64,000 nucleotides of DNA from Flavobacteriales bacterium. GTDB lineage: Bacteria > Bacteroidota > Bacteroidia > Flavobacteriales_D > UBA2798. Position numbers and translations under genes: made by a program. Below the pieces are notes generated by a model. The model worked only from the letters and a program-made list of their open reading frames with translations. It did not search any database and was not told where the DNA came from. Numbering within the stretch: the stretch's first letter is position 1; each line of letters opens with the position of its first letter. The stretch lies in assembly GCA_019694795.1 (NCBI GenBank), contig JAIBBF010000001.1, positions 2,370-66,369 on the forward strand, given 5' to 3'. Positions 1-38,894 of the stretch are shown piece after piece.

Positions 1-785
1 GAACCCGACAAACTATATGTGCTATTGGCAGGATTACATGCCGATGGTGTAGCCGTTACTGAGGTAATGGAACAAGGTAAACATGCAGCAGGAGCAGTGT
101 AATTGGATGTTGCTGTACATGATGTATTAGCAGAGAACGTGGCAGTAACAGTACATGCTGCACCATTTGAAGTAAGACCTGTTAAATTATAATTCAACGG
201 AGAAGTGAATGGTGCGTTAAATGTTTGCGATCCGCCACAGGAACTTGTCACCGTTAAGGTGCCTGTAGTGGGTGGTGAAGAAAATGTAATTTGACCAGCA
301 ACTGAATATTGATTATTTGCAGGATTACAAGCTGAAGGTGTTGAAGTAAGATTTGAAATAACACAACAACTGTTGTTAAGCGAGATTTCTACTGTATAGG
401 AATTAATCCCTGCAATTGGACAAGCATTATCTTCTGCCTGAATAGTTACTGTTTGAAAGGCAGGCGCACCGGTTGGCGGAGTCCAGCAAACTGTTGCTGT
501 GGCAGGATTTGTTCCCGTAAAATTTACGGTTGCACCCGGTAATGCTGTAGTAATATTTGAAGTTAGTGTAATAATATTTCCTGCATTGTTATCACTGAAA
601 ACAACACTAAAACAACCATTGTTTCCATAACACATGGAAACAGCATTGGAACCCGTTTGATTGATGGTGCCCGATAATCCGGATACACCACCTGCAGGAG
701 GTTGCGGAGCCTGATTTGTACAGTTGATTACTTCAACCTGGAATTGCTGCACAACAGTACCAACGACTTGTCCGGATGTATTTGT
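1..785 (-). pseudogene. Stop-free continuation of the adhesin-like ORF 786..1565. It is in the same frame, spans 261 codons and runs off the left window edge.
   Basis: Base-by-base translation of the minus strand after the TAA at 786..788 gives TNTSGQVVGTVVQQFQVEVINCTNQAPQPP...SACNPANNQYSVAGQITF...SACNPANSTYSLSGS. There is no stop down to position 1, no plausible internal start and no signal peptide. Confidence 0.6.
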
Positions 786-1565
786 TTAAGTAATTAAAAC
801 AGCTACAACAAAGTTTCCAATTGTATTTGGAGTGAAGGTTAACACCCCTGCATTATTGTCAATTACAATTCCATTTATTGGTGTTCCACCGGTAAAGCCA
901 GCATTATAGGTAACAGGCGTACCCGCTGCAGATAATGCTGATACCAATTGATATGTTAAAGTGTTTCCATTGGGATCTGATCCTCCCAAAGAATAACTCA
1001 CCGGTTGATTTACGCAAACATATGGAATAGGTGGTGCTGTAATATCTGCTGATGAATTACATGGAGATGTAGCACTGTTTAGTGTTGTAGGAAAATAATA
1101 TCCAGGCTGACCGGATAAATTATTTGTCGTGTTAACGCAACAACTTGAATAGGATAATGTCCATGTATTACATGGTCCGGGCAGTGTAATTGTAGCCTGC
1201 CATTGATGCATCCAGATACCGGGAAGTGTACCTCCAAAACATTCACTTTGATTTACCTGTGAAGGACATAATTGAGAAACGTCCTGCTGGAAAATAGTAT
1301 TGGTCATTGTAAAATTGAGATCAATACCGCCATTTAATCCACAGGTATTCGATGCTACCAATGTCATGGGATCGGTAGCACTCGTAAATGCTGTACCACA
1401 ATCTTCGTACAAGGTTAAGGTTACCAGATATTGATTAGGTCCTACACAATCGTAGGTAATGTTACCACCCGGATTGTGAGAAGCAAAAGCACCGGATGTG
1501 AAAAGAAAAATTGAAACAAATAAAAAACTCAATTTTCCAATTAGAAAATTTCGCATGGCAAGCAA
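786..1565 (-). CDS. Secreted adhesin-like protein, N-terminal portion (signal peptide plus Cys-rich domain), ending at an in-frame TAA.
   Basis: ORF track. The start is TTG at 1565 or, more likely, ATG at 1556 (MRNFLIGKLSFLFVSIFLFTSGAFA signal peptide). The SHNPGGNITYDC motif resembles N-termini of Bacteroidota type-B T9SS cargo. The frame stays open past the stop. Confidence 0.6.
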   Translation of the reverse strand: MLAMRNFLIGKLSFLFVSIFLFTSGAFASHNPGGNITYDCVGPNQYLVTLTLYEDCGTAFTSATDPMTLVASNTCGLNGGIDLNFTMTNTIFQQDVSQLCPSQVNQSECFGGTLPGIWMHQWQATITLPGPCNTWTLSYSSCCVNTTNNLSGQPGYYFPTTLNSATSPCNSSADITAPPIPYVCVNQPVSYSLGGSDPNGNTLTYQLVSALSAAGTPVTYNAGFTGGTPINGIVIDNNAGVLTFTPNTIGNFVVAVLIT

Positions 1566-1614
1566 GTATTATATTATGTATTCTAAAATTTAACGCATCA
1601 ACTATTAAATATGT

Positions 1615-1648
1615 AATCCCGGTTTAAACTTCCATCTAAACCGGGATT
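1615..1648 (-). terminator. Perfect 12-bp stem-loop 7 nt downstream of the giant adhesin stop; possible terminator or attenuator.
   Basis: aatcccggttta (1615..1626) pairs with taaaccgggatt (1637..1648) around a 10-nt loop. The U-run is weak in the minus-strand orientation (acatattt); the T-run is stronger on the plus strand. Confidence 0.45.
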
Positions 1649-1655
1649 GTGTTTT

Positions 1656-4600
1656 TTATCTCAATAAAGTGATATGTCCAATGTAATCATGTTGCACTCC
1701 ACGATGATCGAAGGCTTTCACTTTCCACACATACACATCTTGTTTTGCAGGTTCTCCTTTGTGGGTACCATCCCAACCTGTATTCGGATTATGGGTTTCG
1801 AAAATTAATTCGCCCCAACGGTTAAATACAAGCATTTCATATTCATCCATACTGATTCCAATTCCAACCGGAATAAACACATCGTTTTTACCATCACCAT
1901 TCGGTGTAAATGTATTTGGTGTAAAGAGGATATAATCTCCTTCAACCGTTACCTGATAAGTAATAACATCTGTACATCCATATTGGTTGGTGATAAACAA
2001 TGTAACATCAAATGTTCCTGTATCAGCATAAGTGTGAATCGGATCATCAAATGTGCCGATGGTTAAACCATTGTGTGTATTTGCAGGAACATTTACTCCG
2101 GGAGCACCTGTTAGGGTAAATCCATCTCCAAAATCCCATTGGTAAGTAACAGGTGTTCCTGTAGAAAGATCACCAAAGGTGATGGTAGGACTAAGGATTG
2201 TTGTTGTACCTGGAGTTGTAGAGAAATCAGCAACAGGTACTGGATATACATCCACCATTTCTGTTTGAGAAACTGTAGTAACACAACCCAAAGCAGAAGT
2301 TACTGTAACACATACATCGTAAGTACCCGGATTAGGATAAGTAAATGTTGTATTTGGAGAAGTACCTGAGTAATCCACTACTCCATCGCATTGGAAATCG
2401 TAATCGAAATTGACACCGATATCCGTATTCAGAATAAACTGTGCCGTAAATGGAGCACATCCTGCACTATCCACTACATTAAAGAATACAATCGGTAGAT
2501 CATTTATAGTAACCTGAACTGAATCGAGTGCTACAATTGAACAACCATCATCAACTTTAACCGTGTACCATGTATCCACAGAAGGATTCACAGTAACTGT
2601 AGATTGATTTCCTGATTCAATATCATTTAATGTTGCTCCGTTTTGATCGTACCATGTAAAAGTATATGGTCCGCCATTTCCACCTGAAGCAGATGCTGCT
2701 AATGTGGTAGAATCATTTAAGCAGATGGCAATCGTTGGACTAACATCAACATCTAATGGAGGATTAACCGTAATGGTAATACAATCTTGCGGCGACAAAC
2801 ATCCGTTTGCATCTGTAATATCGAAGCAATAGGTTGTTGTGGTAAGCGGATTAACCATAATTGGTCCAGGCCCACTTAATCCAGGCGTTTGCCAGTTTAC
2901 AGTGTATGGTGTTGTACCGCCGGTTCCACTTGCCCAAAGTTGAGTTGAGTCACCATAACAAATAGTAACATCTAAATCTCCAACAGCGCCAAGTGGATTT
3001 GGTTCAGTAACATCAACACAGTTGGTGGCATTACAGTTATTGTTATCGCTAACAACAACGCAATATAAACCGGTTACCAGATTGGTTGCAGTTTGAGTTG
3101 TTTGTACAGCAGGATCATCCCAAGCATAAGTTAATGGAGCAGTTCCGCCTGTTGTATTAACTGTAGCCGTTCCGTTGCTCTGACCATAACATAATGGCTC
3201 TGTAAATGTAAGTCCGGTAATTACTGGTCCTGCCTGATCGATAATAGTTGCATTGCTTGTTATTACGCATCCATGTGCATCGGTAACTGTAATATCGGTT
3301 ACACCTGCACAAAGTCCTGTGTTGTTTGCAGCATTCATCGCAGCACCGGAAGTCCATGAGTACGCATAAGGCGTTGTACCTCCGGTTACCAATGCAGAAG
3401 ATGCTCCATTACATTGCGAACAAGTAGCATCTGTTACCGAAACTGTAATTGCTAATGCAGCTGGCTCTGTAATGGTATTGCTAACAGTTACCAAACATCC
3501 ATGATTATCCGTTACATCTGTAATGTAATTTCCTGCACAGAGGTTTGTAGCAGTTGAACCTACACTTACGTTATTGGTCCAGGAATAGAAATATGGAGCA
3601 GTGGCACCACTCACTCCCAGGTTTACAATTCCATCACAAACTGCATTACACGAAACGTTTTGCAGACTAGTTGTGTTTACCACTAATTGGGTTGGTTGCG
3701 TAATGGTAGTGTTGGCGGTAAACTGACATCCATTTGCATCCGTTATTACTGCGCTATAATTTCCAGCGCATAATCCTGTATTATTTGCAGATGTTGTGTT
3801 TGCACCACCCGACCATGCAATGGTGTATGGTGTTGTACCACCACTCATGGAAACTGTCGCAGCACCATCACATCCTCCAAAACACAGTGGTGATGTTGTT
3901 GACGTAACCGCCGCATTTAATCCTGTTGGTTCAAAAATAAATTGTGAAGTTGCAACAACACAGTTTGCAGAATCGGTTACCACAATACCATAGGTATCTC
4001 CCGGTAAAGTGGAAACAGTGGTTTGTCCGGTATAAGCAGGAATTACATTGTTGGCGCCATCTAACCATTCAATCACAAGCGGATTTGTTCCTCCTGTTGC
4101 GCTGATTACAATTTCTCCATCTGAAGCACCAAAACATGTTACATCAGAATGTGACGTAACAGCAAGTGTTGGTCCCGGAATATCGCTGATACAAATCAGA
4201 CTATCTTTTACACATCCATTTCCATCTGTAACAGTAAGCGTATAACATCCGGAGAAAAGGTTAAATGCACAAGGAGTGATTTGGCCGGCAGGATCATCAT
4301 ACTGGAAAGTATATGGAGCAACACCACCAATAACACTTGCGCAAATCTGCCCGTTATTCTGTCCGCAGAATGCATTTTCTACAGTAGAAATTGCAAAGCT
4401 CAGAATACTTGGTTGATTCAATGTTACCGTATTTGAAACTGAACATCCGTTGGCATCAGTTACAATTACATCATATGTACCGGCGCATACATTCGAAACA
4501 TTCGCTGTTGTGGCAAAGGATGGATCAAACCATTGAATTGAATATGGTGTTGTACCTCCGGAAACAGCTGCAGCCATTGTACCATCGCAGGCATTGAAGC

Positions 4601-7600
4601 AGGAAATATCTGTTCCGCTCACTGACACTGCAAGAGAACTTGGCTCAATGATATTAACTGTAGCTGTTGCTGTACAACCATTAGCATCGGTAACAGTGAA
4701 GGTATAGGTACCAACGCATAATCCATTATTCATTTGTGTATTTACTCCATTGCTCCATGAATAGGTATAAGGAGCAGTTCCGCCTGATGCAACTCCATTT
4801 GCAAATCCGTCGCAGACTCCTGCACATGATACATTACCACTTAAATCAATCGTGGCAGTTAACAAGGTAGGCTCAGTGATGGAAACATTGTATGAATTGA
4901 AGCAGCCATCCGCATCTGTAAGTGTAACGGAATAATTTCCTGCACAAAGTGATGATGCAGTAGATGTAGTTTGTGCGGCTGGATCATTCCATGAAAAACT
5001 AAATGGCGCTACACCAGAGTTGGCAACCAAAGTAGCTGTTCCATCGCATGACTGAAAGCAGAGATTATTTGTTCCTGAAATCGATCCTGTTACTGCAACA
5101 GGTTCGGTTAATTGATATGGAATAATATTCGTACAACCGTTTGCATCACTTAATATGAGTGTATAATTTCCATCACACAATCCATTAACTGATGATGTTG
5201 TACCAATAGATGCATTAGCGTTATCTCTCCAATCAAAGTTATACGGTGTAACACCACCAGTTACGGCGATAGAAATTACACCATCACAATAGGTGAAACA
5301 AGTAGGATCAATGGCTGTAGGAATATAAACGACTAATGGTGGCTCGGTGATGGTGACATTTGTAGAAGCAGCACAACCGGCAGCATCAGTAACCGTTACA
5401 GAATAAGTTCCGGCTGGTAAATTGCTAGCTGTAGGAGTGGTCTGACTGAATGCAGCTGCATCCCATTGAACAGTAAAGATTCCTGTTCCACCGATCATAT
5501 CAACAGTTGCAGAACCATCATCTAATCCATTACAACTTACATTGGTTTGAGCAATGATCGCTGCAGAAGGACCTGCGATGTCGTTAATTTGAATTACCGC
5601 TGTATCTAAACATTGATTAGCATCTGTAATTTGAACCAAATAGGTTCCGGAGAACAAATTGCTTTCACAGTTATTGGTGCTAGCAACAGATAACCATTGT
5701 AAAGTGTAAGGTGTAATTCCTCCACTTGGCGTTACACAACCTGAACCATCGTTTTGCTGACAGTGTGCATCAACAGCAGTAATTGTATTGGTAAGTTCTG
5801 CAGGTTCTGAAATGGTAGCTGAAGCACTTAATGTACATCCATGGTCATCAGTAACTGTTACTGTATAATTTCCGGGACATAAGAAGAACGCTCCTGATGT
5901 TGTTTGATTCAATGGATCATTCCATGCATAGGTGTAAGGTGTTGTTCCACCAGTTACAGTAGCCGAAGCATTTCCATTACATGCACCAAAACATTTCACA
6001 TCCAAACTCGATAATGAAAGTGAATATGCAGGTGGTTCATTCACAACCACACTGGCAGTAGAGTTACAGCCATTATCATCATTAACAGATACTGTATAAG
6101 TTCCGGCTATTAAACCAGATTGATTGGGCGTGGTTCCTATAACTGTACCGCCGCTATTGGTCCATGTTAAATTATAAGCAGGACTTCCACCGGTAGCAGA
6201 CACAGATACTGAACCGTCACTTCCACCGAAACAGTTTACATCAACTGCGGATGGAGTGGCGACTAATAAAGTTGGTTCTGTTATTGTTACTGAACCTGTA
6301 ATGATACACGAATTGGCATCAGTAACAGATAATGTCCAAACACCAGGTGCAAGGTTAGTGGCGGTTGAAGTTGTTTGCACTGGTGAAGTATTCCAGCTAT
6401 ATGTAAATGGTGCAGCGCCTCCGGTCATAACACCTGATGCAGAACCATCATTCGCTCCAAAACAAAGTACATTGTTCACAACGGACATCGTTAATGTTCC
6501 AGCAGGATTATTACCTACTGTGGCAGCTACTGTAACAGTACAGCCATTTGCATCCGTTACTGTGACATTATACGTGTTGGCTGCTAAGTTATTTTCAGTA
6601 GTTGCTACACCTCCGGAAGACCAGCTATAAGAATATGGTGCAGTTCCACCTGCAGCAGTTACGGTAGCAGATCCATCCGAATTCCCGCAGTTTGCATTTA
6701 CAACTGTTGTACTTGCCGTTAATACGGCAGGTTCAGTTACAACAGCAGTTGACGTTTCTGTACAACCATTTACATCGGCAACAACAAGGCTATACGTTCC
6801 AGCACATAAACCGGATTGAGAAGCTCCGGTCAAGCCACCAGTCCAGGTATATGTTAGAGCTCCTGTACCTCCTGCAGCAGTTGCATTTACTGTTCCATTA
6901 CAAGCTCCATTACACAATGCAGGAGTTGCAGTGGTATTTGAAATAACGATATCTGTAGGTTGCGTTACTGCAACACTTGCTGTAGCCGTATTTCCATTTG
7001 CATCAGTTACCGTAACGGTATAGGTATTTGCACAAACATTGATAATGTTTACTGTGCTGGCACCATTGGACCATGAATAGGTATAAGGAGCAACACCACC
7101 TGCTGCCAATGAATTTACTTGTCCGGTGCAGATATTAAAGCAAGTTAAATTTGTCGGACTTAAAGTTACAGTTAGTGGTGCTGGTTCGGTAATGGTAACA
7201 CATGCTGTAGTTACACAACCGGCAGCATCAGTAATGGTTGCGCAATTATTTCCAGCGCATAAATCATTAGCTGTTGCATTGGTATTCGAATTATCCCAAA
7301 GGATTGTATAAGGAGATGTTCCTCCACTTGGTGTTACTGTTGCAGAACCATTGCATAATCCGGCACCCGTTACGTTACTATTTACCACTGCGGTGGCAGA
7401 AGGTCCTGCAATGGTTCCTACTGTTGCGCTGATGGTGGAAACACATCCGTTTGCATCCGTAGCTGTTACTGTATAGTTACCCGCAGGAATTGCTGTTGCG
7501 CTTGCTGTTGTTTGCACAGGTGATGTATTCCACGAATAAGTAATCGGATTTGTTCCTCCGGTAGCAGTAACTGTTGCAGAACCGTCAGCTTGTCCACAAT

Positions 7601-10600
7601 GCGCATCAACAACTGTTGTAGAAAGTGCTAATGCAGCTGGCTCAGTAATGGTTGCAGTAGCTGTTTGCGTGCAGCCATTAGCATCCGTTACAGTTATGGT
7701 GTAAGTACCAGCATTCATTGAACTGGCATTAGTGGTGTTTTGACCTGCACCAGGTGCTGGACTCCAAGTTTGTGTATATGGTGAAACTCCACCACCAATA
7801 GTTGCTGTTGCTGTTCCATTTGAACCACCATTACAACTTACTGGAGTAACAATTGTACTTACGGTAAGTAAAGTTGGTTCAGTAATGGTAACTGTAGCTG
7901 TTTGCGTACATGCATTTGCATCTGTAATCGTAACTGAATAGGATCCTGCAAGCAAACCAGTTGCAGCAGCTGTTCCTTGTCCTCCACCAGGAACAGGTGA
8001 CCAAGCATAACTATAAGGTGAAACACCTCCTGTGATACTTACACTTGCACTTCCATTATTTCCTCCATTACAACTCACCATTGTTGGCGTACCCATACTT
8101 GCAACTAATGCAGCAGGTTCTGTTATTGTAATATTCGTAGTTGCAGAACAACCATTAGCGTCCGTTACAGTCACAGTATATGACCCTGCAGTTAATCCAC
8201 TTGCATTTGCAGATGATCCTCCAGATGGTGACCATGAAATAGATAATGGATTTGTTCCACCTGCTACCGTTACTGCAGCAACACCATTATTTCCTCCATT
8301 ACATGATACATCAACATGTGAAATCATGTTTTCTACGATGGTTGGAGCAGCATCATTGATAACATTTGCAGTTTGTGAAAATGTACATCCGTTTGCATCG
8401 GTTACTGAAACTGTATATGATCCCGCAGGCAATCCAGTAGCAGTAGAACTAGTTTGAACAGGACTTGTATTCCAACTTATATTATATGGGGTTACACCTC
8501 CGGAAATAGCTGCAGTGGCAGTTCCATTACTTGCACCACAAGTTGCATTCGTTGTAGAAGTGCTTATTGCTAATTGAACCGGTTCTGTTATAGTAACTGT
8601 AGCTGTACTGGTACAGTTGTTTGCATCCGTTACAGTAACAGTATATGAACCTGCAGTCATTGATCCAGCACTTGAAGTTCCTTGTCCACTTCCTGGGGCA
8701 GGACTCCAACTGTATGCATATGGAGTTGTACCTCCTGCTGCTGTAACATTCACACTTCCATTATTTCCTCCATTACAACTCACCATGGTTGGTGTGCCCA
8801 TGGTTGATGTTAAAACTGTAGGTTGTGTAATTGTAACACTTGATGTACTTGTACAACCATTCGCATCTGTGATGGTCACAGTGTATGTACCCGCAGTCAT
8901 TGATCCTGCATTCGCAGTTCCTTGTCCACTACCAGGTGCAGGACTCCAGTTATACGAATAAGCTGTAGTTCCTCCTGCTGCTGTTACACTAACGCTTCCG
9001 TTATTTCCTCCATTACAACTCACCATAGTTGGTGTGCCCATGGCTGAAGTTAAAACTGTAGGTTGTGTAATTGTAACACTTGAGGTACTTGTACATCCAT
9101 TCGCATCTGTGATGGTTACAGTGTATGTACCCGCAGTCAATGATCCTGCATTCGCAGTTCCTTGTCCACTACCAGGTGCAGGACTCCAGTTATATGTATA
9201 TGGTGTTGTTCCACCTGCTACGGTTACACTCACGCTTCCATTATTTCCTCCGTTACAACTCACCATGGTTGGTGTGCCCATGGTTGAAGTTAAAACTGTA
9301 GGTTGTGTAATTGTAACGCTTGATGTACTTGTACAACCATTTGCATCAGTGATGGTAACCGTATAAGCACCTGCTGTCATTGATCCAGCATTTGCAGTTC
9401 CTTGTCCGCTTCCAGGTGCAGGACTCCAGTTATACGTATAAGGTGCAGTTCCACCAGTTGCAGTCACGCTTACACTTCCGTTGTTTCCGCCATTACAACT
9501 TACCATTGTTGGTGTGCCCATAGCAGAAGTAAGGGCAGTTGGTTGTGTAATTGTTGTACTTGCAGTTATTGTGCAAGAGTTAGCATCAGTTACAGTTACG
9601 GTGTATGTACCTGCTGTAAGACCTGAAGCTGTAGATGCAGTTCCTCCTGATGGGGACCACGAATAAGTTAAAGCACCTGTTCCGCCTGCTGCACTTACGC
9701 TCACTGCTCCATTATTTCCTCCATTACATAATACTTGTTGTGTAGTGCTGGCAGTTGCTGTTAATACAGGAGGTTGAGTAATAATAATATTTACAGATGC
9801 CGCACAAAGGTTAGCATCTGTTACTGTTACTGTATAGATACCTGCTGTTAATCCACTTGCAGTTGCAGATGTTCCGCCAGATGGAGACCATGAAATCGAC
9901 AATGGTGCTGTTCCGCCTGATACTGTTACTGCGGCTGCTCCATTATTTCCACCATTACATAATACATCTATATGTGAAGCGATGTTTTCTGTAATTGTAG
10001 GCGCAGCATTGTTATTTACAGAAACCGTTGCAGTAGCCGTACAACCATTTAAATCTGTAACGGTAACTGTATATGTTCCCGCTAATAAATTAGATGCTGT
10101 GGCTGTGGATTGCACAGGAGTAGTGTTCCAACTATAAGTATAAGATCCTGCTCCACCTGTTGCAGTTACAGTTGTTGTTCCAGTTGACGCTCCACAGTTT
10201 GTCGGTGTTGATGCAGTGGTTAAACTAATTGCTGTTGGTTGTGTAATGGCTACAGAAGATGTTGCACTACAACCATTATTATCAGTTATAGTTACTGTAT
10301 AAGAACCTGCCGTTAATGAACCTGCATTGGCAGTTCCTTGTCCACTTCCAGGTGCAGGACTCCAGTTATACGTATAAGGTGCAGTTCCGCCCGCTGCTGT
10401 TACACTCACACTTCCATTATTCCCGCCATTACAACTTACCATTGTTGGCGCACCCATTGTCGCTGTTAATACAGCAGGTTGAGTTATTGTTGCACTAGCA
10501 GTAGTTGTACAGCCAGTATTGTCGGTAATGGTGACTGTGTAAGTTCCAGCAGTTAATGAAGATGCTGCTGCTGTTCCCTGACCCGCTCCGGGAGCTGGAC

Positions 10601-13600
10601 TCCAGTTGTAGGTATAAGGTGCTGATCCGCCTGCTGCTGTTACACTCACACTTCCATTATTTCCTCCATTACAACTCACCATTGTTGGTGTACCCATGGT
10701 TGCAGTTAATGCGGTCGGTTGTGTAATCGTAACACTCGCTGTTGCTGTACAGCCTTTGTTGTCAGTAACAGTTACAGTATATGTTCCTGCGGTAAGTGAT
10801 CCGGCATTGGCAGTTCCTTGTCCGCTTCCAGGAGCAGGACTCCAGTTGTACATATAAGGTGCTGTTCCGCCTGCTGCTGTTACACTCACACTTCCATTGT
10901 TACCTCCATTACAACTCACCATTGTTGGTGTGCCCATGGTGGCAGTTAAAACTGTTGGTTGTGTAATCGTAACACTCGCTGTTGCTGTACAGCCTTTGTT
11001 ATCGGTGATGGTTACTGAATAAGTTCCTGCGGTAAGTGATCCTGCATTGGCAGTTCCTTGTCCACTTCCGGGTGCAGGACTCCAGTTGTAGGTATACGGT
11101 GCTGTTCCGCCCGCTGCTGTTACACTCACACTTCCATTGTTTCCTCCATTACAACTCACCATTGTTGGTGTACCCATGGTGGCGGTTAGTACGGCAGGTT
11201 GTGTTATCGTTACACTCGCTGTTGCTGTACAGCCTTTGTTATCGGTTATTGTTACTGTATAGGTTCCGGCAGTTAATGAAGATGCTGCTGCGGTTCCCTG
11301 ACCTGCTCCAGGAGCAGGACTCCAGTTGTAGGTATAAGGTGCTGTTCCGCCAGCTGCTGTTACACTCACACTTCCATTGTTACCTCCATTACAACTCACC
11401 ATTGTTGGTGTACCCATGGTGGCAGTTAATGCGGTAGGTTGTGTAATCGTAACACTCGCTGTTGCTGTACAGCCTTTGTTATCGGTTATGGTTACAGTAT
11501 ACGTTCCTGCAGTAAGTAATCCTGCATTGGCAGTTCCTTGTCCGCTTCCAGGTGCAGGACTCCAGTTATACGTATACGGTGCTGTTCCGCCCGCTGCTGT
11601 TACACTCACACTTCCATTGTTACCTCCATTACAACTCACCATTGTTGGTGTACCCATGGTTGCAGTTAATGCGGTCGGTTGTGTAATCGTAACACTCGCT
11701 GTTGCCGTACAGCCTTTGTTATCGGTGATGGTTACTGAATAAGTTCCTGCGGTAAGTGATCCTGCATTGGCAGTTCCTTGTCCACTTCCAGGTGCAGGAC
11801 TCCAGTTATACGTATAAGGTGCTGTTCCGCCAGCTGCTGTTACACTCACACTTCCATTGTTACCTCCATTACAACTCACCATGGTTGGTGTGCCCATGGT
11901 GGCAGTTAAAACTGTTGGTTGTGTAATCGTAACACTCGCTGTTGCCGTACAGCCTTTGTTATCGGTGATGGTTACTGAATAAGTTCCTGCGGTAAGTGAT
12001 CCTGCATTGGCAGTTCCTTGTCCACTTCCAGGTGCAGGACTCCAGTTATACGTATACGGAGCTGTTCCGCCCGCTGCTGTTACACTCACACTTCCATTGT
12101 TACCACCATTACAACTCACCATGGTTGGTGTACCCATTGTGGCAGTTAAAACTGTTGGTTGGGTAATTGTAACACTGGCTGTTGCAGTACAGCCTTTGTT
12201 ATCGGTGATGGTTACTGTATAAGTTCCTGCGGTAAGTGATCCTGCATTGGCAGTTCCTTGTCCACTTCCGGGTGCAGGACTCCAGTTATACGTATAAGGT
12301 GCTGTTCCACCAGCTGCTGTTACACTCACACTTCCATTGTTACCTGCATTACAACTCACCATTGTCGGTGTACCCATGGTTGCAGTTAATACAGCAGGTT
12401 GTGTTATTGTAACACTTGCTGTTGCTGTACAGCCTTTGTTATCGGTAATGGTTACTGTATACGTTCCTGCAGTCATCCCTGTGATCGAATAGTTGCCTCC
12501 TGATATTGCAATTTCATTCCCTGCTGGATTTCCACTAGTTGGTCCAGTCCAGCTAACATTATAGGCTGCAGTTCCACCAGTTGCTGTTACACTCACACTT
12601 CCATTATTACCGCCATTACAATTCACCATTGTTGGTGTACCCATGGTTGCAGTTAAAACTGTTGGTTGTGTAATTGTAACACTCGCTGTTGCTGTACAGC
12701 CTTTGTTATCTGTAACAGTTACAGTATATGTTCCTGCGGTAAGTGATCCTGCATTGGCAGTTCCTTGTCCGCTTCCGGGTGCAGGACTCCAGTTATACGT
12801 ATAAGGTGCTGTTCCGCCCGCTGCTGTTACACTCACACTTCCATTGTTACCTCCATTACAATTCACCATTGTTGGTGTGCCCATGGTGGCGGTAAGTTGT
12901 GTAGGTTGGGTCATTGAAGCGGAAGCTGTAGCTGTACAACCAAAATTGTTAGTTACAGTTACGGAATAAGGTCCTCCTACAGGAACAGAAACTGTTTGTG
13001 TTGCTTGTCCCGCAGGTGGATTCCATGCATATCCAAATGAAGAACCTCCGGTTGGATTTGCAGTGATGGTTCCATTTTGCCCAAAACAGTTAGGTGGAGT
13101 AACCGTTAAAGTAACTGCCGGATTTGGATTTACTGTGACGCTTAATGTTTCTGTATTTGTACATGTACCATTCGAAACTGTTAATGTCACCGTATAGGTT
13201 CCTGTTGCTCCGTAAGTGTGAGAAACTGTTGAACCTGTTCCAGTGGTTGCATCACCGAAATTCCAGGAATAACTTGTAATTGATCCTGAAGAAATGGTAG
13301 ATGTTGTTCCTGAAAAATTGAACGAGTTTCCAGTTAAACACTGTGCTGCCACCGGTGTGATATTTGCATCTATCGTAACACCTGGGTTAACCGTAGAACT
13401 TGCTGTTCTGGTACAACCATTAGCATCAGTTACAGTTACTGTATACGTACCTGCAACTAATCCGGTAATGGAATAACTACCTCCAGAAGATGCAATCTCT
13501 GTTCCAACAGGTGCACCACTTGATGGACCAATCCAGCTTACATTGTAACCTGCAGTACCTCCAGAAGCCGTAACGGCTATTGATCCATTATTTCCTCCAA

Positions 13601-15572
13601 CGCAAGCAACCGCTGTTGGTGTTAATGTTGCGGTAATTGCTGTTGGTTGAGTAATGGTTACAGAAGGTATTACACGCGTACAACCATTTGCATCTGTAAC
13701 TGTGATATTATAGGTTCCAGCTCCAAGCGCATTTAAAGTATAAGTTCCACCTGAAGATGCAATTTCATTTCCGGCCGGATTTCCAGTTGTTGTTCCTGTC
13801 CATGAAATATTATATGGAGCAGTACCGCCAGATGCAGTTACTACAATACTTCCTGTAGTTCCTCCATTACATGCAACGTTAGTTTGTGTTGTGGTAGCAG
13901 TTATTGCAGTTGGTTGAGTAATGGTTACACTTTGTGTACATGTTACTCCACCAGAAGCAGTTACTGTTACAGTATAAGTTCCGGCTGATAATCCGGTTAC
14001 GGAAGCTGTTCCTTGTCCACCACCAGGTGCAGGACTCCAACTGTAAGAAAATGGCCCCGTCCCACTTGGGGTTGCAGTCGCTGTTCCATTGTTTCCTCCG
14101 TTACAAGTAACATTGGTTTGGGTAGTGGTAATGGAACAAGGACTTACAATATTACAGTTGGTTGCACCAGTACCACCCGATTGTGAAAATTGGATATACC
14201 CGGCGGATCCATTATAGTTGGTGATTAATAACATGTACCATTGTCCGGCTACTGCATTTGGTATATCAGCAGTTTCGGTATATGATGCGGAATAAGAACA
14301 ATCCACAAGGTTTCCACTTGGATATGTGGTAGGAATTGTTGTTGAAGGTGCAATGTTAGCACAGGCATTTGCCACCGAGGTGAATGGACCCCATAATGCA
14401 AAATCGACATCAATACCGACACCGCCAGTGGTATATTGATTGATATTTATGGATATTGGTCCGGAGGTAGCAATATTTAAATACATCCACATTGGGTTAG
14501 GGGTGGAATACAAACAATTGTATTGACCCATTGATGCAACTCCGGTTGTATTACAATAGTTATAGGCAGTACCCGTACAAAATGGATCTGCAGAATTACA
14601 GTTGGTATTTACGGCACCGGCCAAGCATGGTCCGGTTCCTCCACCAGTTGCTGATTCAGTAACACAAAGACTAAACGAACCAAAATCTGTTCCTCCGTAA
14701 TCCCAAACCATGAGATAAACCGTAGTACCTGGAGTTAACCCGGATAAATTTAATTGAGGCATGGTTGTTCCACCCGCATCATCATTACAAGAAATCAATG
14801 TAAAGGTTCCGGAACAACTTGTGGCAGTATAAGCAGCCATCCCCATGTCCGTTAAAGATCCGGCATAAGTTTGAACATTTACCGCTCCAGAAGCAGGAAC
14901 AGTAAACGAATAAAAAACTTCATTTCCACTGTAGAAAGCACAACCCGGAGCAGGAATAGTTTGCGAGGTGGTAGTAGCTCCTGAATTATTACCTGAGGTA
15001 GTTGTACAACCAGTATTGGAAGGATATACTGTTAATGGCGTTGCACCACACGGGTTATCATTGGATGGAACAGTAGTATTATTTGTACTTGCACATATTG
15101 AGAAATTACCATTGTCATTTCCTCCATAATCCCACAAACGAACGTAAATTGTCGTGCCAGGAGTTAAACCAGAAACAGACAAATATGGCATCAACCCATT
15201 AACGGATCCGTCATCATCACAAGCAATTTGTGTGAAAGTACCTGAACAAGATGTTGCAGTATACCATGCCATTCCCATATCCGTAAGAGTACCTGTATTC
15301 ATGTCGATGGTTAAGTTACCGCTCGCAGGCACGGTAACACTATACCATACGTCATCAGATCCAGCTGGATATGAAGAGCAAGTTGGAGCCGGAATACCTA
15401 CAGTTCCTGTTGAGTTTGCAGGCATACTTCCCGCAACATAGGTACAGGATGTTCCAACTGTTAAAACGGTAGCCCCACAAGGATCATCGTTTGTAGGAGG
15501 TGGCATTGCATTTGCCAGGAATGGCATCAAAATAGCAAATGCCAGAAATAAATTCTTCATCAATTTCATCAT
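1656..15572 (-). CDS. Giant (4,638 aa) SprB-repeat cell-surface adhesin with a C-terminal T9SS type-B (CHU_C / gliding-motility C-terminal) sorting domain.
   Basis: Signal peptide MMKLMKNLFLAFAILMPFLANA. Next come two paralogous ~135-aa N-terminal modules and a Cys-rich domain. Dozens of ~80-aa repeats of the form C-NGG-NG...GG-PY-Y-W...L-AG-Y-V-V-D-NGC follow. PKD-like segments are present (YSWNFGDATTG...). The C-terminus reads FTPNGDGKNDVF...FNRWGELIF...WDGT...DVYVWKV. Confidence 0.9.
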   Translation of the reverse strand: MMKLMKNLFLAFAILMPFLANAMPPPTNDDPCGATVLTVGTSCTYVAGSMPANSTGTVGIPAPTCSSYPAGSDDVWYSVTVPASGNLTIDMNTGTLTDMGMAWYTATSCSGTFTQIACDDDGSVNGLMPYLSVSGLTPGTTIYVRLWDYGGNDNGNFSICASTNNTTVPSNDNPCGATPLTVYPSNTGCTTTSGNNSGATTTSQTIPAPGCAFYSGNEVFYSFTVPASGAVNVQTYAGSLTDMGMAAYTATSCSGTFTLISCNDDAGGTTMPQLNLSGLTPGTTVYLMVWDYGGTDFGSFSLCVTESATGGGTGPCLAGAVNTNCNSADPFCTGTAYNYCNTTGVASMGQYNCLYSTPNPMWMYLNIATSGPISININQYTTGGVGIDVDFALWGPFTSVANACANIAPSTTIPTTYPSGNLVDCSYSASYTETADIPNAVAGQWYMLLITNYNGSAGYIQFSQSGGTGATNCNIVSPCSITTTQTNVTCNGGNNGTATATPSGTGPFSYSWSPAPGGGQGTASVTGLSAGTYTVTVTASGGVTCTQSVTITQPTAITATTTQTNVACNGGTTGSIVVTASGGTAPYNISWTGTTTGNPAGNEIASSGGTYTLNALGAGTYNITVTDANGCTRVIPSVTITQPTAITATLTPTAVACVGGNNGSIAVTASGGTAGYNVSWIGPSSGAPVGTEIASSGGSYSITGLVAGTYTVTVTDANGCTRTASSTVNPGVTIDANITPVAAQCLTGNSFNFSGTTSTISSGSITSYSWNFGDATTGTGSTVSHTYGATGTYTVTLTVSNGTCTNTETLSVTVNPNPAVTLTVTPPNCFGQNGTITANPTGGSSFGYAWNPPAGQATQTVSVPVGGPYSVTVTNNFGCTATASASMTQPTQLTATMGTPTMVNCNGGNNGSVSVTAAGGTAPYTYNWSPAPGSGQGTANAGSLTAGTYTVTVTDNKGCTATASVTITQPTVLTATMGTPTMVNCNGGNNGSVSVTATGGTAAYNVSWTGPTSGNPAGNEIAISGGNYSITGMTAGTYTVTITDNKGCTATASVTITQPAVLTATMGTPTMVSCNAGNNGSVSVTAAGGTAPYTYNWSPAPGSGQGTANAGSLTAGTYTVTITDNKGCTATASVTITQPTVLTATMGTPTMVSCNGGNNGSVSVTAAGGTAPYTYNWSPAPGSGQGTANAGSLTAGTYSVTITDNKGCTATASVTITQPTVLTATMGTPTMVSCNGGNNGSVSVTAAGGTAPYTYNWSPAPGSGQGTANAGSLTAGTYSVTITDNKGCTATASVTITQPTALTATMGTPTMVSCNGGNNGSVSVTAAGGTAPYTYNWSPAPGSGQGTANAGLLTAGTYTVTITDNKGCTATASVTITQPTALTATMGTPTMVSCNGGNNGSVSVTAAGGTAPYTYNWSPAPGAGQGTAAASSLTAGTYTVTITDNKGCTATASVTITQPAVLTATMGTPTMVSCNGGNNGSVSVTAAGGTAPYTYNWSPAPGSGQGTANAGSLTAGTYSVTITDNKGCTATASVTITQPTVLTATMGTPTMVSCNGGNNGSVSVTAAGGTAPYMYNWSPAPGSGQGTANAGSLTAGTYTVTVTDNKGCTATASVTITQPTALTATMGTPTMVSCNGGNNGSVSVTAAGGSAPYTYNWSPAPGAGQGTAAASSLTAGTYTVTITDNTGCTTTASATITQPAVLTATMGAPTMVSCNGGNNGSVSVTAAGGTAPYTYNWSPAPGSGQGTANAGSLTAGSYTVTITDNNGCSATSSVAITQPTAISLTTASTPTNCGASTGTTTVTATGGAGSYTYSWNTTPVQSTATASNLLAGTYTVTVTDLNGCTATATVSVNNNAAPTITENIASHIDVLCNGGNNGAAAVTVSGGTAPLSISWSPSGGTSATASGLTAGIYTVTVTDANLCAASVNIIITQPPVLTATASTTQQVLCNGGNNGAVSVSAAGGTGALTYSWSPSGGTASTASGLTAGTYTVTVTDANSCTITASTTITQPTALTSAMGTPTMVSCNGGNNGSVSVTATGGTAPYTYNWSPAPGSGQGTANAGSMTAGAYTVTITDANGCTSTSSVTITQPTVLTSTMGTPTMVSCNGGNNGSVSVTVAGGTTPYTYNWSPAPGSGQGTANAGSLTAGTYTVTITDANGCTSTSSVTITQPTVLTSAMGTPTMVSCNGGNNGSVSVTAAGGTTAYSYNWSPAPGSGQGTANAGSMTAGTYTVTITDANGCTSTSSVTITQPTVLTSTMGTPTMVSCNGGNNGSVNVTAAGGTTPYAYSWSPAPGSGQGTSSAGSMTAGSYTVTVTDANNCTSTATVTITEPVQLAISTSTTNATCGASNGTATAAISGGVTPYNISWNTSPVQTSSTATGLPAGSYTVSVTDANGCTFSQTANVINDAAPTIVENMISHVDVSCNGGNNGVAAVTVAGGTNPLSISWSPSGGSSANASGLTAGSYTVTVTDANGCSATTNITITEPAALVASMGTPTMVSCNGGNNGSASVSITGGVSPYSYAWSPVPGGGQGTAAATGLLAGSYSVTITDANACTQTATVTITEPTLLTVSTIVTPVSCNGGSNGTATATIGGGVSPYTQTWSPAPGAGQNTTNASSMNAGTYTITVTDANGCTQTATATITEPAALALSTTVVDAHCGQADGSATVTATGGTNPITYSWNTSPVQTTASATAIPAGNYTVTATDANGCVSTISATVGTIAGPSATAVVNSNVTGAGLCNGSATVTPSGGTSPYTILWDNSNTNATANDLCAGNNCATITDAAGCVTTACVTITEPAPLTVTLSPTNLTCFNICTGQVNSLAAGGVAPYTYSWSNGASTVNIINVCANTYTVTVTDANGNTATASVAVTQPTDIVISNTTATPALCNGACNGTVNATAAGGTGALTYTWTGGLTGASQSGLCAGTYSLVVADVNGCTETSTAVVTEPAVLTASTTVVNANCGNSDGSATVTAAGGTAPYSYSWSSGGVATTENNLAANTYNVTVTDANGCTVTVAATVGNNPAGTLTMSVVNNVLCFGANDGSASGVMTGGAAPFTYSWNTSPVQTTSTATNLAPGVWTLSVTDANSCIITGSVTITEPTLLVATPSAVDVNCFGGSDGSVSVSATGGSPAYNLTWTNSGGTVIGTTPNQSGLIAGTYTVSVNDDNGCNSTASVVVNEPPAYSLSLSSLDVKCFGACNGNASATVTGGTTPYTYAWNDPLNQTTSGAFFLCPGNYTVTVTDDHGCTLSASATISEPAELTNTITAVDAHCQQNDGSGCVTPSGGITPYTLQWLSVASTNNCESNLFSGTYLVQITDANQCLDTAVIQINDIAGPSAAIIAQTNVSCNGLDDGSATVDMIGGTGIFTVQWDAAAFSQTTPTASNLPAGTYSVTVTDAAGCAASTNVTITEPPLVVYIPTAIDPTCFTYCDGVISIAVTGGVTPYNFDWRDNANASIGTTSSVNGLCDGNYTLILSDANGCTNIIPYQLTEPVAVTGSISGTNNLCFQSCDGTATLVANSGVAPFSFSWNDPAAQTTSTASSLCAGNYSVTLTDADGCFNSYNVSITEPTLLTATIDLSGNVSCAGVCDGFANGVASGGTAPYTYSWSNGVNTQMNNGLCVGTYTFTVTDANGCTATATVNIIEPSSLAVSVSGTDISCFNACDGTMAAAVSGGTTPYSIQWFDPSFATTANVSNVCAGTYDVIVTDANGCSVSNTVTLNQPSILSFAISTVENAFCGQNNGQICASVIGGVAPYTFQYDDPAGQITPCAFNLFSGCYTLTVTDGNGCVKDSLICISDIPGPTLAVTSHSDVTCFGASDGEIVISATGGTNPLVIEWLDGANNVIPAYTGQTTVSTLPGDTYGIVVTDSANCVVATSQFIFEPTGLNAAVTSTTSPLCFGGCDGAATVSMSGGTTPYTIAWSGGANTTSANNTGLCAGNYSAVITDANGCQFTANTTITQPTQLVVNTTSLQNVSCNAVCDGIVNLGVSGATAPYFYSWTNNVSVGSTATNLCAGNYITDVTDNHGCLVTVSNTITEPAALAITVSVTDATCSQCNGASSALVTGGTTPYAYSWTSGAAMNAANNTGLCAGVTDITVTDAHGCVITSNATIIDQAGPVITGLTFTEPLCYGQSNGTATVNTTGGTAPLTYAWDDPAVQTTQTATNLVTGLYCVVVSDNNNCNATNCVDVTEPNPLGAVGDLDVTICYGDSTQLWASGTGGTTPYTVNWQTPGLSGPGPIMVNPLTTTTYCFDITDANGCLSPQDCITITVNPPLDVDVSPTIAICLNDSTTLAASASGGNGGPYTFTWYDQNGATLNDIESGNQSTVTVNPSVDTWYTVKVDDGCSIVALDSVQVTINDLPIVFFNVVDSAGCAPFTAQFILNTDIGVNFDYDFQCDGVVDYSGTSPNTTFTYPNPGTYDVCVTVTSALGCVTTVSQTEMVDVYPVPVADFSTTPGTTTILSPTITFGDLSTGTPVTYQWDFGDGFTLTGAPGVNVPANTHNGLTIGTFDDPIHTYADTGTFDVTLFITNQYGCTDVITYQVTVEGDYILFTPNTFTPNGDGKNDVFIPVGIGISMDEYEMLVFNRWGELIFETHNPNTGWDGTHKGEPAKQDVYVWKVKAFDHRGVQHDYIGHITLLR
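1659..1930 (-). other. Type-B T9SS sorting domain of the giant adhesin.
   Basis: The last ~90 aa read ILFTPNTFTPNGDGKNDVFIPVG...LVFNRWGELIFE...WDGTHKGEPAKQDVYVWKVKAFD...GHITLLR. Confidence 0.8.
8590..9550 (-). repeat. Tandem array of 4 near-identical 240-bp (80-aa) SprB-repeat units (TDANGCTSTSSVTITQPTVLTS variant).
   Basis: Sequence lines 8761, 9001, 9241 and 9481 are in exact 240-bp register and nearly identical (ttatttcctccattacaactcaccatggttggtgtgcccatgg...). Confidence 0.85.
10260..12930 (-). repeat. Tandem array of 11 near-identical SprB-repeat units (TDNKGCTATASVTITQP variant). Nine consecutive units are in exact 240-bp register; one unit is an 89-aa variant.
   Basis: Lines 10381, 10621, 10861, 11101, 11341, 11581, 11821, 12061 and 12301 align in phase. 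11701..11760 is identical to 11941..12000 (60/60). 10861..10920 vs 11341..11400 differ at 1 of 60 positions. Two adjacent units are identical at the protein level. Confidence 0.9.
14661..15494 (-). other. Duplicated ~135-aa N-terminal module of the giant adhesin (function unassigned).
   Basis: Module A is NDDPCGATVL...SCSGTFTQIACDDDG...LSGLTPGTTIYVRLWDYGGNDNGNFSICA. Module B is NDNPCGATPL...SCSGTFTLISCNDDAG...LSGLTPGTTVYLMVWDYGGTDFGSFSLCV. Confidence 0.6.
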
Positions 15573-33992: not shown

Positions 33993-36419
33993 TTAAATTT
34001 TCACTTGCAAAGCCACATAAAAATTTCTTCCGTCGGCAGGTAATATTCCGGGACCAGGATAGGCGGTTGCTCTTCTGGTAAAATACATTTGATTCATCAT
34101 ATTATTTACTCCACTTTCCAATCTCCAGCGTTTATAATTCAACGACATTGAAAAATCCCAGACCCAATATGCAGGTACAATTCCACTTACTGCATTGGGA
34201 GAATAAGTTGCATTGGTTGCATCTGAATACTGTTCGGCTGTGTACGAATATTGCAAGGTTGCACTTATAAATTTGCTTTTAAATGAAGTTCCGGTTCTAA
34301 GTGTTTGCCTGGGGACCAATTCAACATATTTCCCGCTTACTGCAGCGTTTGAACTTTTTAAATAACGTGAATCAATAAAAGAATAATTAACGAAAATGGT
34401 CCAGCTATTTTTAAGCGAATCATTCCACCATTTCAACAAATCAGTTTCTACAAACGATTCCACTCCCATGTTGTAGGAATTTCCCACATTGGTACGGTAA
34501 CGATAAACCTGTAAAGTTTGCGGATCACTTTCCAGGACTTCTCCAATACGATTTTTATAGTTGATATAAAATACAGAAACATCGTAGGTCAATTTTCGCT
34601 TCCAGTTCCCTCTCCAGCCTGCATCGGTGGTATAACCATACTCATCGCTTATGGATGGATCAACTTTGTAATTGGGATTTGAAATTTGAAGATCAGAAAA
34701 ATTAATGGCGCGATAATTTTGAGAAATATTTCCATAAACCTCACCCGCATTTTTTGTTTTATAAGCGAGACCAATTCCCGATAAAAACACCCAACGTTCC
34801 CGTTCTGTTTGACTATTTATATTTTGCTCAAAAATGATATTCCCAGCTAAATCAGTAGCGATTTGCTTATAATAACCTTTCGATTTTGTATTGATGTACT
34901 CCAGTCGAACACCGGGTGTGATGGTAAAGTTTTGAGATATATAAAATATATTTTCAGAAAACAGTGCCATGTTTCTACTTGGAAAGGTATAATCTGAACC
35001 TTCTAAATCATCCGCATGGTTAAATGAAAAATTGGCATTAGAAAGACTATCGGATTGACCTTGCTGATTGATGGTTTGTCCTGCATACACCCGAATTCCC
35101 GATAGAAAAACACCTATATTTTTCCCTAATGCATAGCGATGAAGGAAACGGGTTTCACTTCCGATATTATGGAATTGACCAATTATTAAATCGCGATTCC
35201 CGCCCGGATCAATTCGGGTGATAGAACCTAAAAACCCGACCGATTTACGATCGGCGAGTAAACCGAAATTACGGATGTTGAGTTGCGATTTGGAACTTAA
35301 ATTGATGTTTGCACTAAATGAAAATAAATTCCAGTTTACATTGAACCAATTTCTGTTTCGAATAGATTGTTTTGGATCCTGACGAAACATGGCATCGGTT
35401 AGTCCGCCCGGTTGTTGAGCCAGATAACTCATGTGGGTATAATCTGCATTCAGCAGAATGTGTTCCCTTACTTTAAAGCTTAATGATACAAATCCATTCT
35501 TCTGATTAAAACCGGCGTTATTTCTCCAACCCTCTCCTTGCTTATATTGAAATCCCGCAAAATAATTGAACCTTTTTTTGGTGCCCCCTACTGTTATGGA
35601 ACTATTCACCAATGCAAATGACCCGAGCGATTGACGAAATGTAATTTCGAAGGGTTTTAATTTTGTGCCTTGCTTCATTACAAAATTGACCACACCTCCA
35701 AATTGAGTCCCGTACTGCAAAGAAGATGCACCGCGTACAACTTCAATACGATCTAAAAATTCGGTAGCAGGTGTATAATAACTTTCCGGATAACCCAATG
35801 CATCGGCACTGATATCATAACCGTTTTGTCGGGTATTAAAATTAGATGTGCGGTTGGGCGACAATCCTCTTCCGCCTATACCTAATTGGAGTCCTGCCCC
35901 ATCACTTTCCCAAATATTTAATCCCGCAATTTTCGCATAAACCTGTCGCGAATTATTGGTGGCTTTGTTAACATCCATTTTATCCAACACAACCACTTCA
36001 TTTTTTTTACCGGCATAAATTGCAGTTCCTTCTACCGGATTTAAACGTGTGATTGAAAAATTCTGATCCTCTGCGCCAGTCACCTCAACCGGATCCAGTT
36101 CATATCCTACCGGCTTCAAATAAACTGAAATCAGGGTGTCCTTTTGGATTTCGATATTGACTCGCAATACATCATATCCATATTGAAAAAAAACAAACTC
36201 CAGGGGAAATTTGCTTTTACTGGTATAAATAAAAAATCCGTTTTGATTGGTGGTGACTGCATTATTTTCCTGTTCGCAAATAACACGTACTCCTTGAATT
36301 TGCTTTTTAGTTTCCGCATCGAAAACCGTTCCGGAAATGGTCTGTCCCAGTACTTCCACTCCACCTGATAATATCAGAATGAACGAAAGCAGAAAATGAT
36401 ATGAAAAACAAATTCTCAT
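33993..36419 (-). CDS. TonB-dependent receptor with an N-terminal carboxypeptidase-regulatory-like domain.
   Basis: Signal peptide. ISGTVFDAETKKQIQGVRV domain. Plug region (DPVEVTG..., IEVVRGASSLQYG). Long beta-barrel portion. The protein is 808 aa. Confidence 0.85.
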   Translation of the reverse strand: MRICFSYHFLLSFILILSGGVEVLGQTISGTVFDAETKKQIQGVRVICEQENNAVTTNQNGFFIYTSKSKFPLEFVFFQYGYDVLRVNIEIQKDTLISVYLKPVGYELDPVEVTGAEDQNFSITRLNPVEGTAIYAGKKNEVVVLDKMDVNKATNNSRQVYAKIAGLNIWESDGAGLQLGIGGRGLSPNRTSNFNTRQNGYDISADALGYPESYYTPATEFLDRIEVVRGASSLQYGTQFGGVVNFVMKQGTKLKPFEITFRQSLGSFALVNSSITVGGTKKRFNYFAGFQYKQGEGWRNNAGFNQKNGFVSLSFKVREHILLNADYTHMSYLAQQPGGLTDAMFRQDPKQSIRNRNWFNVNWNLFSFSANINLSSKSQLNIRNFGLLADRKSVGFLGSITRIDPGGNRDLIIGQFHNIGSETRFLHRYALGKNIGVFLSGIRVYAGQTINQQGQSDSLSNANFSFNHADDLEGSDYTFPSRNMALFSENIFYISQNFTITPGVRLEYINTKSKGYYKQIATDLAGNIIFEQNINSQTERERWVFLSGIGLAYKTKNAGEVYGNISQNYRAINFSDLQISNPNYKVDPSISDEYGYTTDAGWRGNWKRKLTYDVSVFYINYKNRIGEVLESDPQTLQVYRYRTNVGNSYNMGVESFVETDLLKWWNDSLKNSWTIFVNYSFIDSRYLKSSNAAVSGKYVELVPRQTLRTGTSFKSKFISATLQYSYTAEQYSDATNATYSPNAVSGIVPAYWVWDFSMSLNYKRWRLESGVNNMMNQMYFTRRATAYPGPGILPADGRNFYVALQVKI

Positions 36420-37777: not shown

Positions 37778-37780
37778 GCA

Positions 37781-38893: not shown

Positions 38894-38894
38894 T

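Follow-up and report, generated by a model that had tools for sequence, protein, structure and literature searches.

The stretch of DNA analysed here, referred to as the window, comprises 64,000 nucleotides of a metagenome-assembled genome (MAG) of a Flavobacteriales bacterium (GenBank assembly GCA_019694795.1, contig JAIBBF010000001.1, positions 2,370 to 66,369 of the forward strand), and its left end carries an adhesin-like gene that is interrupted by a single in-frame stop codon. The gene lies on the minus strand, where an open reading frame (ORF) at 786..1565 begins with a TTG at 1565, contains an in-frame ATG at 1556, and closes with a TAA at 786..788. Beyond this TAA the same frame stays open from 785 to 3, a distance of 261 codons, and then leaves the window. 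At the base composition of the window a stop is expected about once every 16 codons, and the probability of 261 open codons is 4.6e-8. Translation bears out a preliminary description of the sequence, which had placed the end of the ORF at this TAA, had reported 261 stop-free codons in the same frame downstream, and had recognized adhesin-like motifs after the stop: the segment VVGTVVQQFQVEVINC starts 7 residues past the TAA, and the motif SACNPAN..YS..G occurs twice, 291 nt (97 amino acids, aa) apart. The same description had held that the downstream part has neither a start codon nor a signal peptide of its own. The signal peptide is indeed absent, but in-frame starts do exist, namely a GTG at 752 (12 codons past the stop) and an ATG at 635 (51 codons past it). 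The evidence discussed below indicates that one gene, for an adhesin-like cargo protein of the type IX secretion system (T9SS), is interrupted here, very probably by a genuine point mutation of very recent date that turned GAA (Glu257) into TAA.

Both the NCBI annotation and the Logan assemblies start the gene at the ATG at 1556, giving a product of 256 aa. Counted from this start, the premature TAA is codon 257, and the change on the coding strand is a G to T substitution at window position 788. The parts of the interrupted gene are as follows.

1482..1556, minus strand: ATG start codon (1554..1556) and signal peptide of the Sec type (residues 1-25), probably cleaved between AFA and SH.
789..1556, minus strand: upstream part, codons 1-256, containing the signal peptide, the Cys-rich N-terminal beta domain, and most of the immunoglobulin (Ig)/cadherin-like domain.
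1197..1199, minus strand: codon 120, CAG (Gln) in the window and TAG in a related contig described below (L082).
726..1031, minus strand: Ig/cadherin-like beta-sandwich cut by the stop, of approximate extent, placed from a structural model of a homologue (P0012) and a weak Cadherin_5 match.
786..788, minus strand: premature TAA, codon 257; the ancestral codon is GAA (Glu).
3..785, minus strand: downstream part, 261 stop-free codons, containing the last Ig-like strand, a third conserved domain, and 97-aa repeat modules; it leaves the window.
1..341, minus strand: 97-aa (291-nt) repeat modules, with one full unit at 51..341 and the start of a second at 1..50.

The product of the interrupted gene is best described as a T9SS cargo protein with adhesin-like features, from an undescribed family. 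A Sec signal peptide, MRNFLIGKLSFLFVSIFLFTSGAFA followed by SH, can be read at its N-terminus, with legible n-, h-, and c-regions and an AFA motif before the Ser, and this segment aligns with the signal peptides of homologues. Pfam and NCBIfam scans of both halves and of the joined protein returned no significant family match, and the match of the Ig-like domain to Cadherin_5 is weak and below threshold (Pfam E = 0.16). A search of a large protein collection identified 123 homologues. Those of full length come from uncultured Bacteroidota and are single polypeptides about 800-900 aa long (intact relatives that end in PF13585 span 800-1400 aa). Many of these full-length relatives contain PKD and SprB repeats, and most end in a C-terminal PF13585 domain (CHU_C, the T9SS sorting domain of type B), while a few end in PF18962 (type A). 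The C-terminal T9SS sorting domain of the window copy, expected by comparison with these relatives, would lie beyond the window. An exact 31-mer scan of the Joint Genome Institute (JGI) metagenomes for a leftward extension of the gene gave no match, and neither the downstream partial proteins from the internal starts nor the second fragment of L082 is in the protein collection.

The Cys-rich N-terminal beta domain (window 1062..1478, approximately residues 27-165, SHVPGGNITY.C.G.NQY..TLTLYEDCG...) is kept in more than 120 proteins, including P0002-P0029, and is confidently modelled; it is without a Pfam, NCBIfam, or significant PDB match, and appears to be an undescribed domain family. The repeat module has the form SACNPAN..YS..G...TGTLTV..CGG.QTFNAPFTSP, and the 97-aa unit is tandemly repeated in the proteins P0001, P0004, P0008, and P0011, of which P0004, P0008, and P0011 carry PF13585. 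The related loci come from Flavobacteriales and Chitinophagales MAGs. Several of these genomes hold two family paralogues within one 20-kb locus (L006, L073, L077, L078, and L079), which suggests local duplication and possible redundancy within the family. The window itself contains no paralogue of the interrupted gene.

The residue that occupies the stop position in relatives was examined at the DNA level in 130 alignments from 123 loci, of which 84 (79 loci) come from species-representative genomes and 46 (44 loci) from metagenomes. All 130 read through the stop position, and none has a stop there. Glu is found in 96 of the 130 (GAA 68, GAG 28), in agreement with the Glu that the preliminary description had given for related cargo proteins, and the remaining alignments have Asp (12), Ser (11), Thr (8), or Ile (3). 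In the protein alignment Glu is present at this position in almost all homologues, within the motif ..GN.VVAVL..E[YF]D.NG.LVG.V.QDFQFEVINC. Complete relatives each have a single ORF, 478-2574 codons in length, and nowhere in the aligned region is a family member interrupted by a stop. The preliminary description had left room for orthologues that consist of two separate genes; none was found, as every relative has one open frame. The next codon, 258 (ACA, 783..785), encodes Thr in both the window and L082, while most relatives have an aromatic residue (Tyr, Phe, Trp) and some have Ile. Thr258 is a lineage-specific change at a conserved position that is older than both of the stops described below.

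The same allele and a close relative of it are found in other assemblies. The exact 256-aa product is recorded at NCBI as MBX7093074.1 (locus tag K1X56_00010) from the Flavobacteriales MAG. Logan contig L001 (run SRR23459705) is 100% identical to window 718..8077 (7360 nt) and has the same TAA, so that this stop is returned by two pipelines, the NCBI MAG and the Logan Cuttlefish/Minia assembly. Clustering of proteins at 90% places one other member with the window protein, a 119-aa protein from run SRR1025216. The Logan contig that encodes it (L082, 1085 nt) aligns without gaps to window 1576..492 with 12 mismatches, an identity of 99%. No papers on either run or on the locus tag turned up in the literature. 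L082 has GAA at the codon that is TAA in the window, which provides direct sight of the one-base change from GAA to TAA that had been proposed in the preliminary description. Conversely, codon 120 of L082 is TAG (L082 positions 378-380), where the window has CAG, encoding a Gln that is shared with several relatives. The differences between the window and L082 consist of 10 synonymous changes, no missense changes, and 2 nonsense changes, one per lineage. By this comparison the two stops appear to be derived and to have arisen independently, because the other strain and the wider family carry a sense codon at each position.

Further strain variants were sought through a word-indexed protein search with the non-repeat region, which returned distant relatives only, and scans of genomes and metagenomes revealed no relative above 63% identity. 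A diversity-generating retroelement was considered as a source of the strain differences and rejected, as these differences are not adenine-specific and, the two stops apart, all silent. All 10 synonymous differences fall within 876..1374, and in the flanks, 492..875 (384 nt) and 1375..1576 (202 nt), the only difference is the stop at 788. This clustering could be a recombination tract or chance.

The likely consequence of the truncation was probed with a structural model. The AlphaFold2 model was made of P0012, the closest short intact homologue (53% identical), and not of the window protein. The model is of good quality (predicted local distance difference test, pLDDT, 88.4; predicted template modelling score, pTM, 0.81) and contains an N-terminal helix at residues 3-23, corresponding to the signal peptide, followed by all-beta domains. 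Glu258 of P0012, equivalent to the stop position, is located at the end of strand 248-259, the next-to-last strand of a sandwich, and the final 14-residue strand at 265-278 (equivalent to VVGTVVQQFQVEVI in the window gene) is encoded past the stop. Foldseek comparison with the PDB gave weak matches only, to Ig-like or cadherin-like sandwiches (dystroglycan and SraP adhesin modules), with E values of at least 2e-3, and a profile search of PDB sequences found nothing significant. The stop-cut domain thus resembles the dystroglycan-type and bacterial cadherin-like Ig domains (SraP, He_PIG, Cadherin_5) in being a beta-sandwich, and it has the motif ...D.DGD.L.Y.L......G..ID..TG...FTP...G...V.V.V.E.D..G. 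In contrast to true members of these families, all of its matches are below significance (Pfam E = 0.16; Foldseek E of at least 2e-3), pointing to a resemblance of fold and not to membership.

Over half of the visible protein, plus everything beyond the window, lies downstream of the stop. T9SS cargo reaches the cell surface by Sec export followed by passage through the T9SS, and needs a C-terminal sorting domain for passage across the outer membrane. Started at the ATG at 1556, translation would end after 256 residues, and the resulting product would keep the signal peptide and would lack the last Ig/cadherin-like strand, all of the following parts, and the sorting domain expected from relatives. 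A product restarted past the stop would have no signal peptide. As neither fragment could reach the surface via the Sec-plus-T9SS route, loss of function is the most likely outcome, which would make the copy in the window a young pseudogene.

The downstream part gives an indication of the age of this loss. It contains no further stop or frameshift, and the nearly invariant family residues are kept. The ratio of downstream to upstream identity to relatives is 0.81, compared to 0.83 among intact homologues, so that no decay is visible. Given the 10 synonymous changes that separate the two strains, neutrality would lead one to expect 22-30 missense changes, and 0 are seen (P <= 2e-10). Furthermore, 4-5% of random non-synonymous changes make stops, and the chance that both of two such changes are nonsense is 0.002-0.003. 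Because missense changes are absent, any period of relaxed selection can amount to no more than about one tenth of the strain divergence. On the simplest reading of these comparisons, the gene would have been functional and strongly constrained until recently, and would then have been inactivated separately in each lineage.

These figures also bear on the alternative that survives best, wherein the gene was already dispensable in the species and both stops are random hits under relaxed selection. Neutral decay of this kind is plausible on general grounds, as the surface adhesin families of Bacteroidota are large and redundant, pairs of paralogues lie within 20 kb at several related loci, MAGs often contain pseudogenes, and two strains only are available for comparison. 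However, such decay should produce about 18 missense changes for every nonsense change, so that the 22-30 expected missense changes should not all be missing, and any neutral period that the data allow would on average bring fewer than about 0.2 nonsense hits. Neutral decay is consequently considered unlikely, and the preferred reading remains that a constrained gene was recently inactivated by a point mutation.

A second alternative is that the stop is a sequencing or assembly error, so that the codon would really be GAA in an undamaged gene. The TAA is one base away from the codon found in a 99%-identical strain and the downstream frame is perfectly kept, both of which are what an error would produce; consensus errors do occur in MAGs, and L001 possibly comes from the sample of the MAG. 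On the other hand, two assemblers return the same base. Logan assembly discards k-mers that are seen once, so that every 31-mer is seen at least twice (PMC12424806), and by this rule at least two reads stand behind each of the two stops, the TAA of L001 and the TAG of L082. Moreover, the change is a G to T substitution and not a homopolymer indel, and the rest of the 64 kb is without a comparable interruption, so the consensus quality looks good. The in-frame pairs of ORFs separated by a single stop elsewhere in the window serve as controls for this last point. Three of them are complete unrelated genes (a LytTR regulator and MgsA, an M28 peptidase and a DUF7793 protein, an imelysin and an HTTM protein), and a fourth case lies on the strand opposite a giant gene. 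The third pair (36416..38917, minus strand) consists of an imelysin (Peptidase_M75) gene and, directly after it and in frame with it, an HTTM/vitamin-K-dependent gamma-carboxylase-like gene, and the two are separate and complete. The interrupted gene alone in the 64-kb window is broken within a domain, which argues against poor consensus quality as well as against general suppression of stop codons. An error is therefore improbable, to a greater degree than neutral decay.

A third alternative is that the stop is real and tolerated, wherein readthrough or a suppressor tRNA yields the full-length protein and the gene remains functional. Such tolerance would fit the 261 undecayed downstream codons and the complete lack of missense changes between strains despite two stops. 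An ochre suppressor tRNA can read both UAA and UAG, and a single one could in principle serve both strains, with their different stops. Nevertheless, each stop is strain-specific and none of the 130 family alignments has a stop, so there is no conserved recoding signal. Of the 52 open frames in the window that reach 120 codons or more, 37 (71%) end in TAA, including that of the giant neighbouring gene, so that an efficient ochre suppressor would be very costly. The window has no other gene with an internal stop and, along its 64 kb, no tRNA gene. In addition, UAA is the least leaky stop in the bacteria studied, and a recent mutation explains the lack of decay equally well. Reassignment of TAA under an alternative genetic code was likewise rejected, since TAA is the dominant terminator of the window. 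The interrupted gene is similar to known readthrough, suppressor, and reassignment systems in having an in-frame stop followed by a long, intact, conserved frame. It is unlike them in that its stop is not conserved even at 99% identity, TAA is the commonest terminator of the window, and the window yielded neither a suppressor tRNA nor a recoding signal. A tolerated stop is thus very improbable. Among the three options named in the preliminary description, recent nonsense mutation, sequencing error, and readthrough, the first is clearly the best, as two assemblies agree, the stop is strain-specific, and TAA is the main terminator.

The weakest alternative, two functional genes consisting of a short secreted N-terminal protein and a downstream protein made from the GTG at 752 or the ATG at 635, finds some favour in those in-frame starts 12 and 51 codons past the stop and in the annotation of the 256-aa product by gene callers, but it is scarcely credible given that no relative is so arranged (all are single ORFs, which refutes a two-gene split as the ancestral architecture), the break falls inside a beta-sandwich, the downstream product has no signal peptide, and the sister strain has a sense codon at the stop.

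Several points weigh against the reading of the TAA as a genuine, recent mutation with an independent counterpart in a sister strain. L001 may share a sample or culture with the MAG, as there are 0 differences over 7360 nt, and if so it represents an independent assembly but not an independent observation. L001 also stops 68 nt past the TAA, at window 718, and this end could be an assembly-graph branch caused by a strain variant, or could reflect low coverage. L082 is short and includes 20 nt of upstream sequence only, on which any synteny with the window would have to rest; formally, it could be a very recent paralogue rather than a sister strain.

The upstream neighbour of the interrupted gene is a giant gene, and the intergenic region contains a strong hairpin.

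1615..1648, minus strand: hairpin with a 15-bp stem, a likely terminator, just past the stop of the giant upstream gene.
1656..15572, minus strand: gene for a 4638-aa protein with SprB-repeat, PKD, and CHU_C domains, ending in TAA.

The hairpin has a folding energy of -21.4 kcal/mol (z = -4.6), and 0 of 200 shuffled sequences fold equally well. The giant gene is directly upstream of the family member in 0 of 89 related loci. Because this strong hairpin separates the two genes and their adjacency is not conserved, the interrupted gene is probably its own transcription unit, and an operon with the giant adhesin gene was rejected on the same two grounds. The Bacteroidota -7 promoter motif (TAnnTTTG) was not found in the 90 nt upstream of the gene. 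Within the giant protein a unit of about 98 aa (TMGTPTMVSCNGGNNGSVSVTAAGGTAPYTYNWSPAPGSGQGTANAGSLTAGTYTVTITDNKGCTATASVTITQPT) recurs many times in tandem with almost no change. Contig L001 breaks inside its gene at 8077, and the exact giant protein is not on record elsewhere.

The family can be compared to the T9SS type B cargo adhesins, such as SprB and RemA (PF13585 CHU_C, TIGR04131). Similar to these proteins, the window gene encodes a Sec signal peptide, tandem Ig/cadherin-like domains, and repeats, its intact relatives end in PF13585, and it adjoins the gene for the 4638-aa SprB-repeat/CHU_C protein. The CHU_C domain at the end of that protein, and the origin of the relatives from Flavobacteriales and Chitinophagales MAGs, are indirect signs that the host may encode a T9SS. 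In contrast to these proteins, the visible part of the window copy is without an SprB repeat and its sorting domain is outside the window, the Cys-rich N-terminal domain and the conserved region that follows match no model, and the adjacency to the giant gene is not conserved.

A second useful comparison is with phage-selected mutants. In Flavobacterium, the mutations obtained by laboratory selection with phage are mostly nonsense and frameshift changes in genes for gliding and the T9SS, G:C to T:A transversions are the main substitution class, and the T9SS adhesins, SprB and RemA among them, are regarded as probable phage receptors (PMC9804748; a related source on phage-selected loss-of-function mutations in Flavobacterium is bioRxiv 10.1101/2020.10.02.323337). 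The alleles described here resemble these mutants in being nonsense changes in a gene for a surface protein, and the GAA to TAA change belongs to their main class. They differ in that the Flavobacterium mutants were selected in the laboratory and map to machinery genes (gldK/L/M/J, sprA) and not to a cargo protein of this family, while the two alleles compared here are known from environmental metagenome assemblies without a phage link.

Taken with the two strain-specific stops, this comparison raises the possibility of positive selection for loss of the T9SS cargo protein in natural or engineered communities. One route would be escape from a phage, or from a predator or grazer, that uses the surface protein as a receptor. 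Selection for loss is put forward tentatively, as an idea somewhat less probable than its absence; drift in small or bottlenecked populations is also possible, and the comparison involves two strains only.

In kind, the interrupted gene is an ordinary young pseudogene; it gains in value through the 99%-identical strain, whose own independent stop is a modest sign of parallel and possibly adaptive loss. For annotation, the two halves should be joined and the gene flagged as disrupted, instead of being listed as a 256-aa hypothetical protein. Two different stops in a strongly constrained gene are the pattern to be expected if cells profit from losing a surface protein, for instance by escaping phage that use it as a receptor, and here the pattern is seen in uncultured Flavobacteriales without laboratory selection. 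If loss has indeed been selected, the family, with more than 120 members and N-terminal domains that have no Pfam model, would become a candidate receptor or target, and this cargo protein would represent a naturally occurring on/off surface antigen that is visible directly in metagenomes. The locus would then also be an example of how strain-resolved metagenomes can reveal adaptive gene loss.

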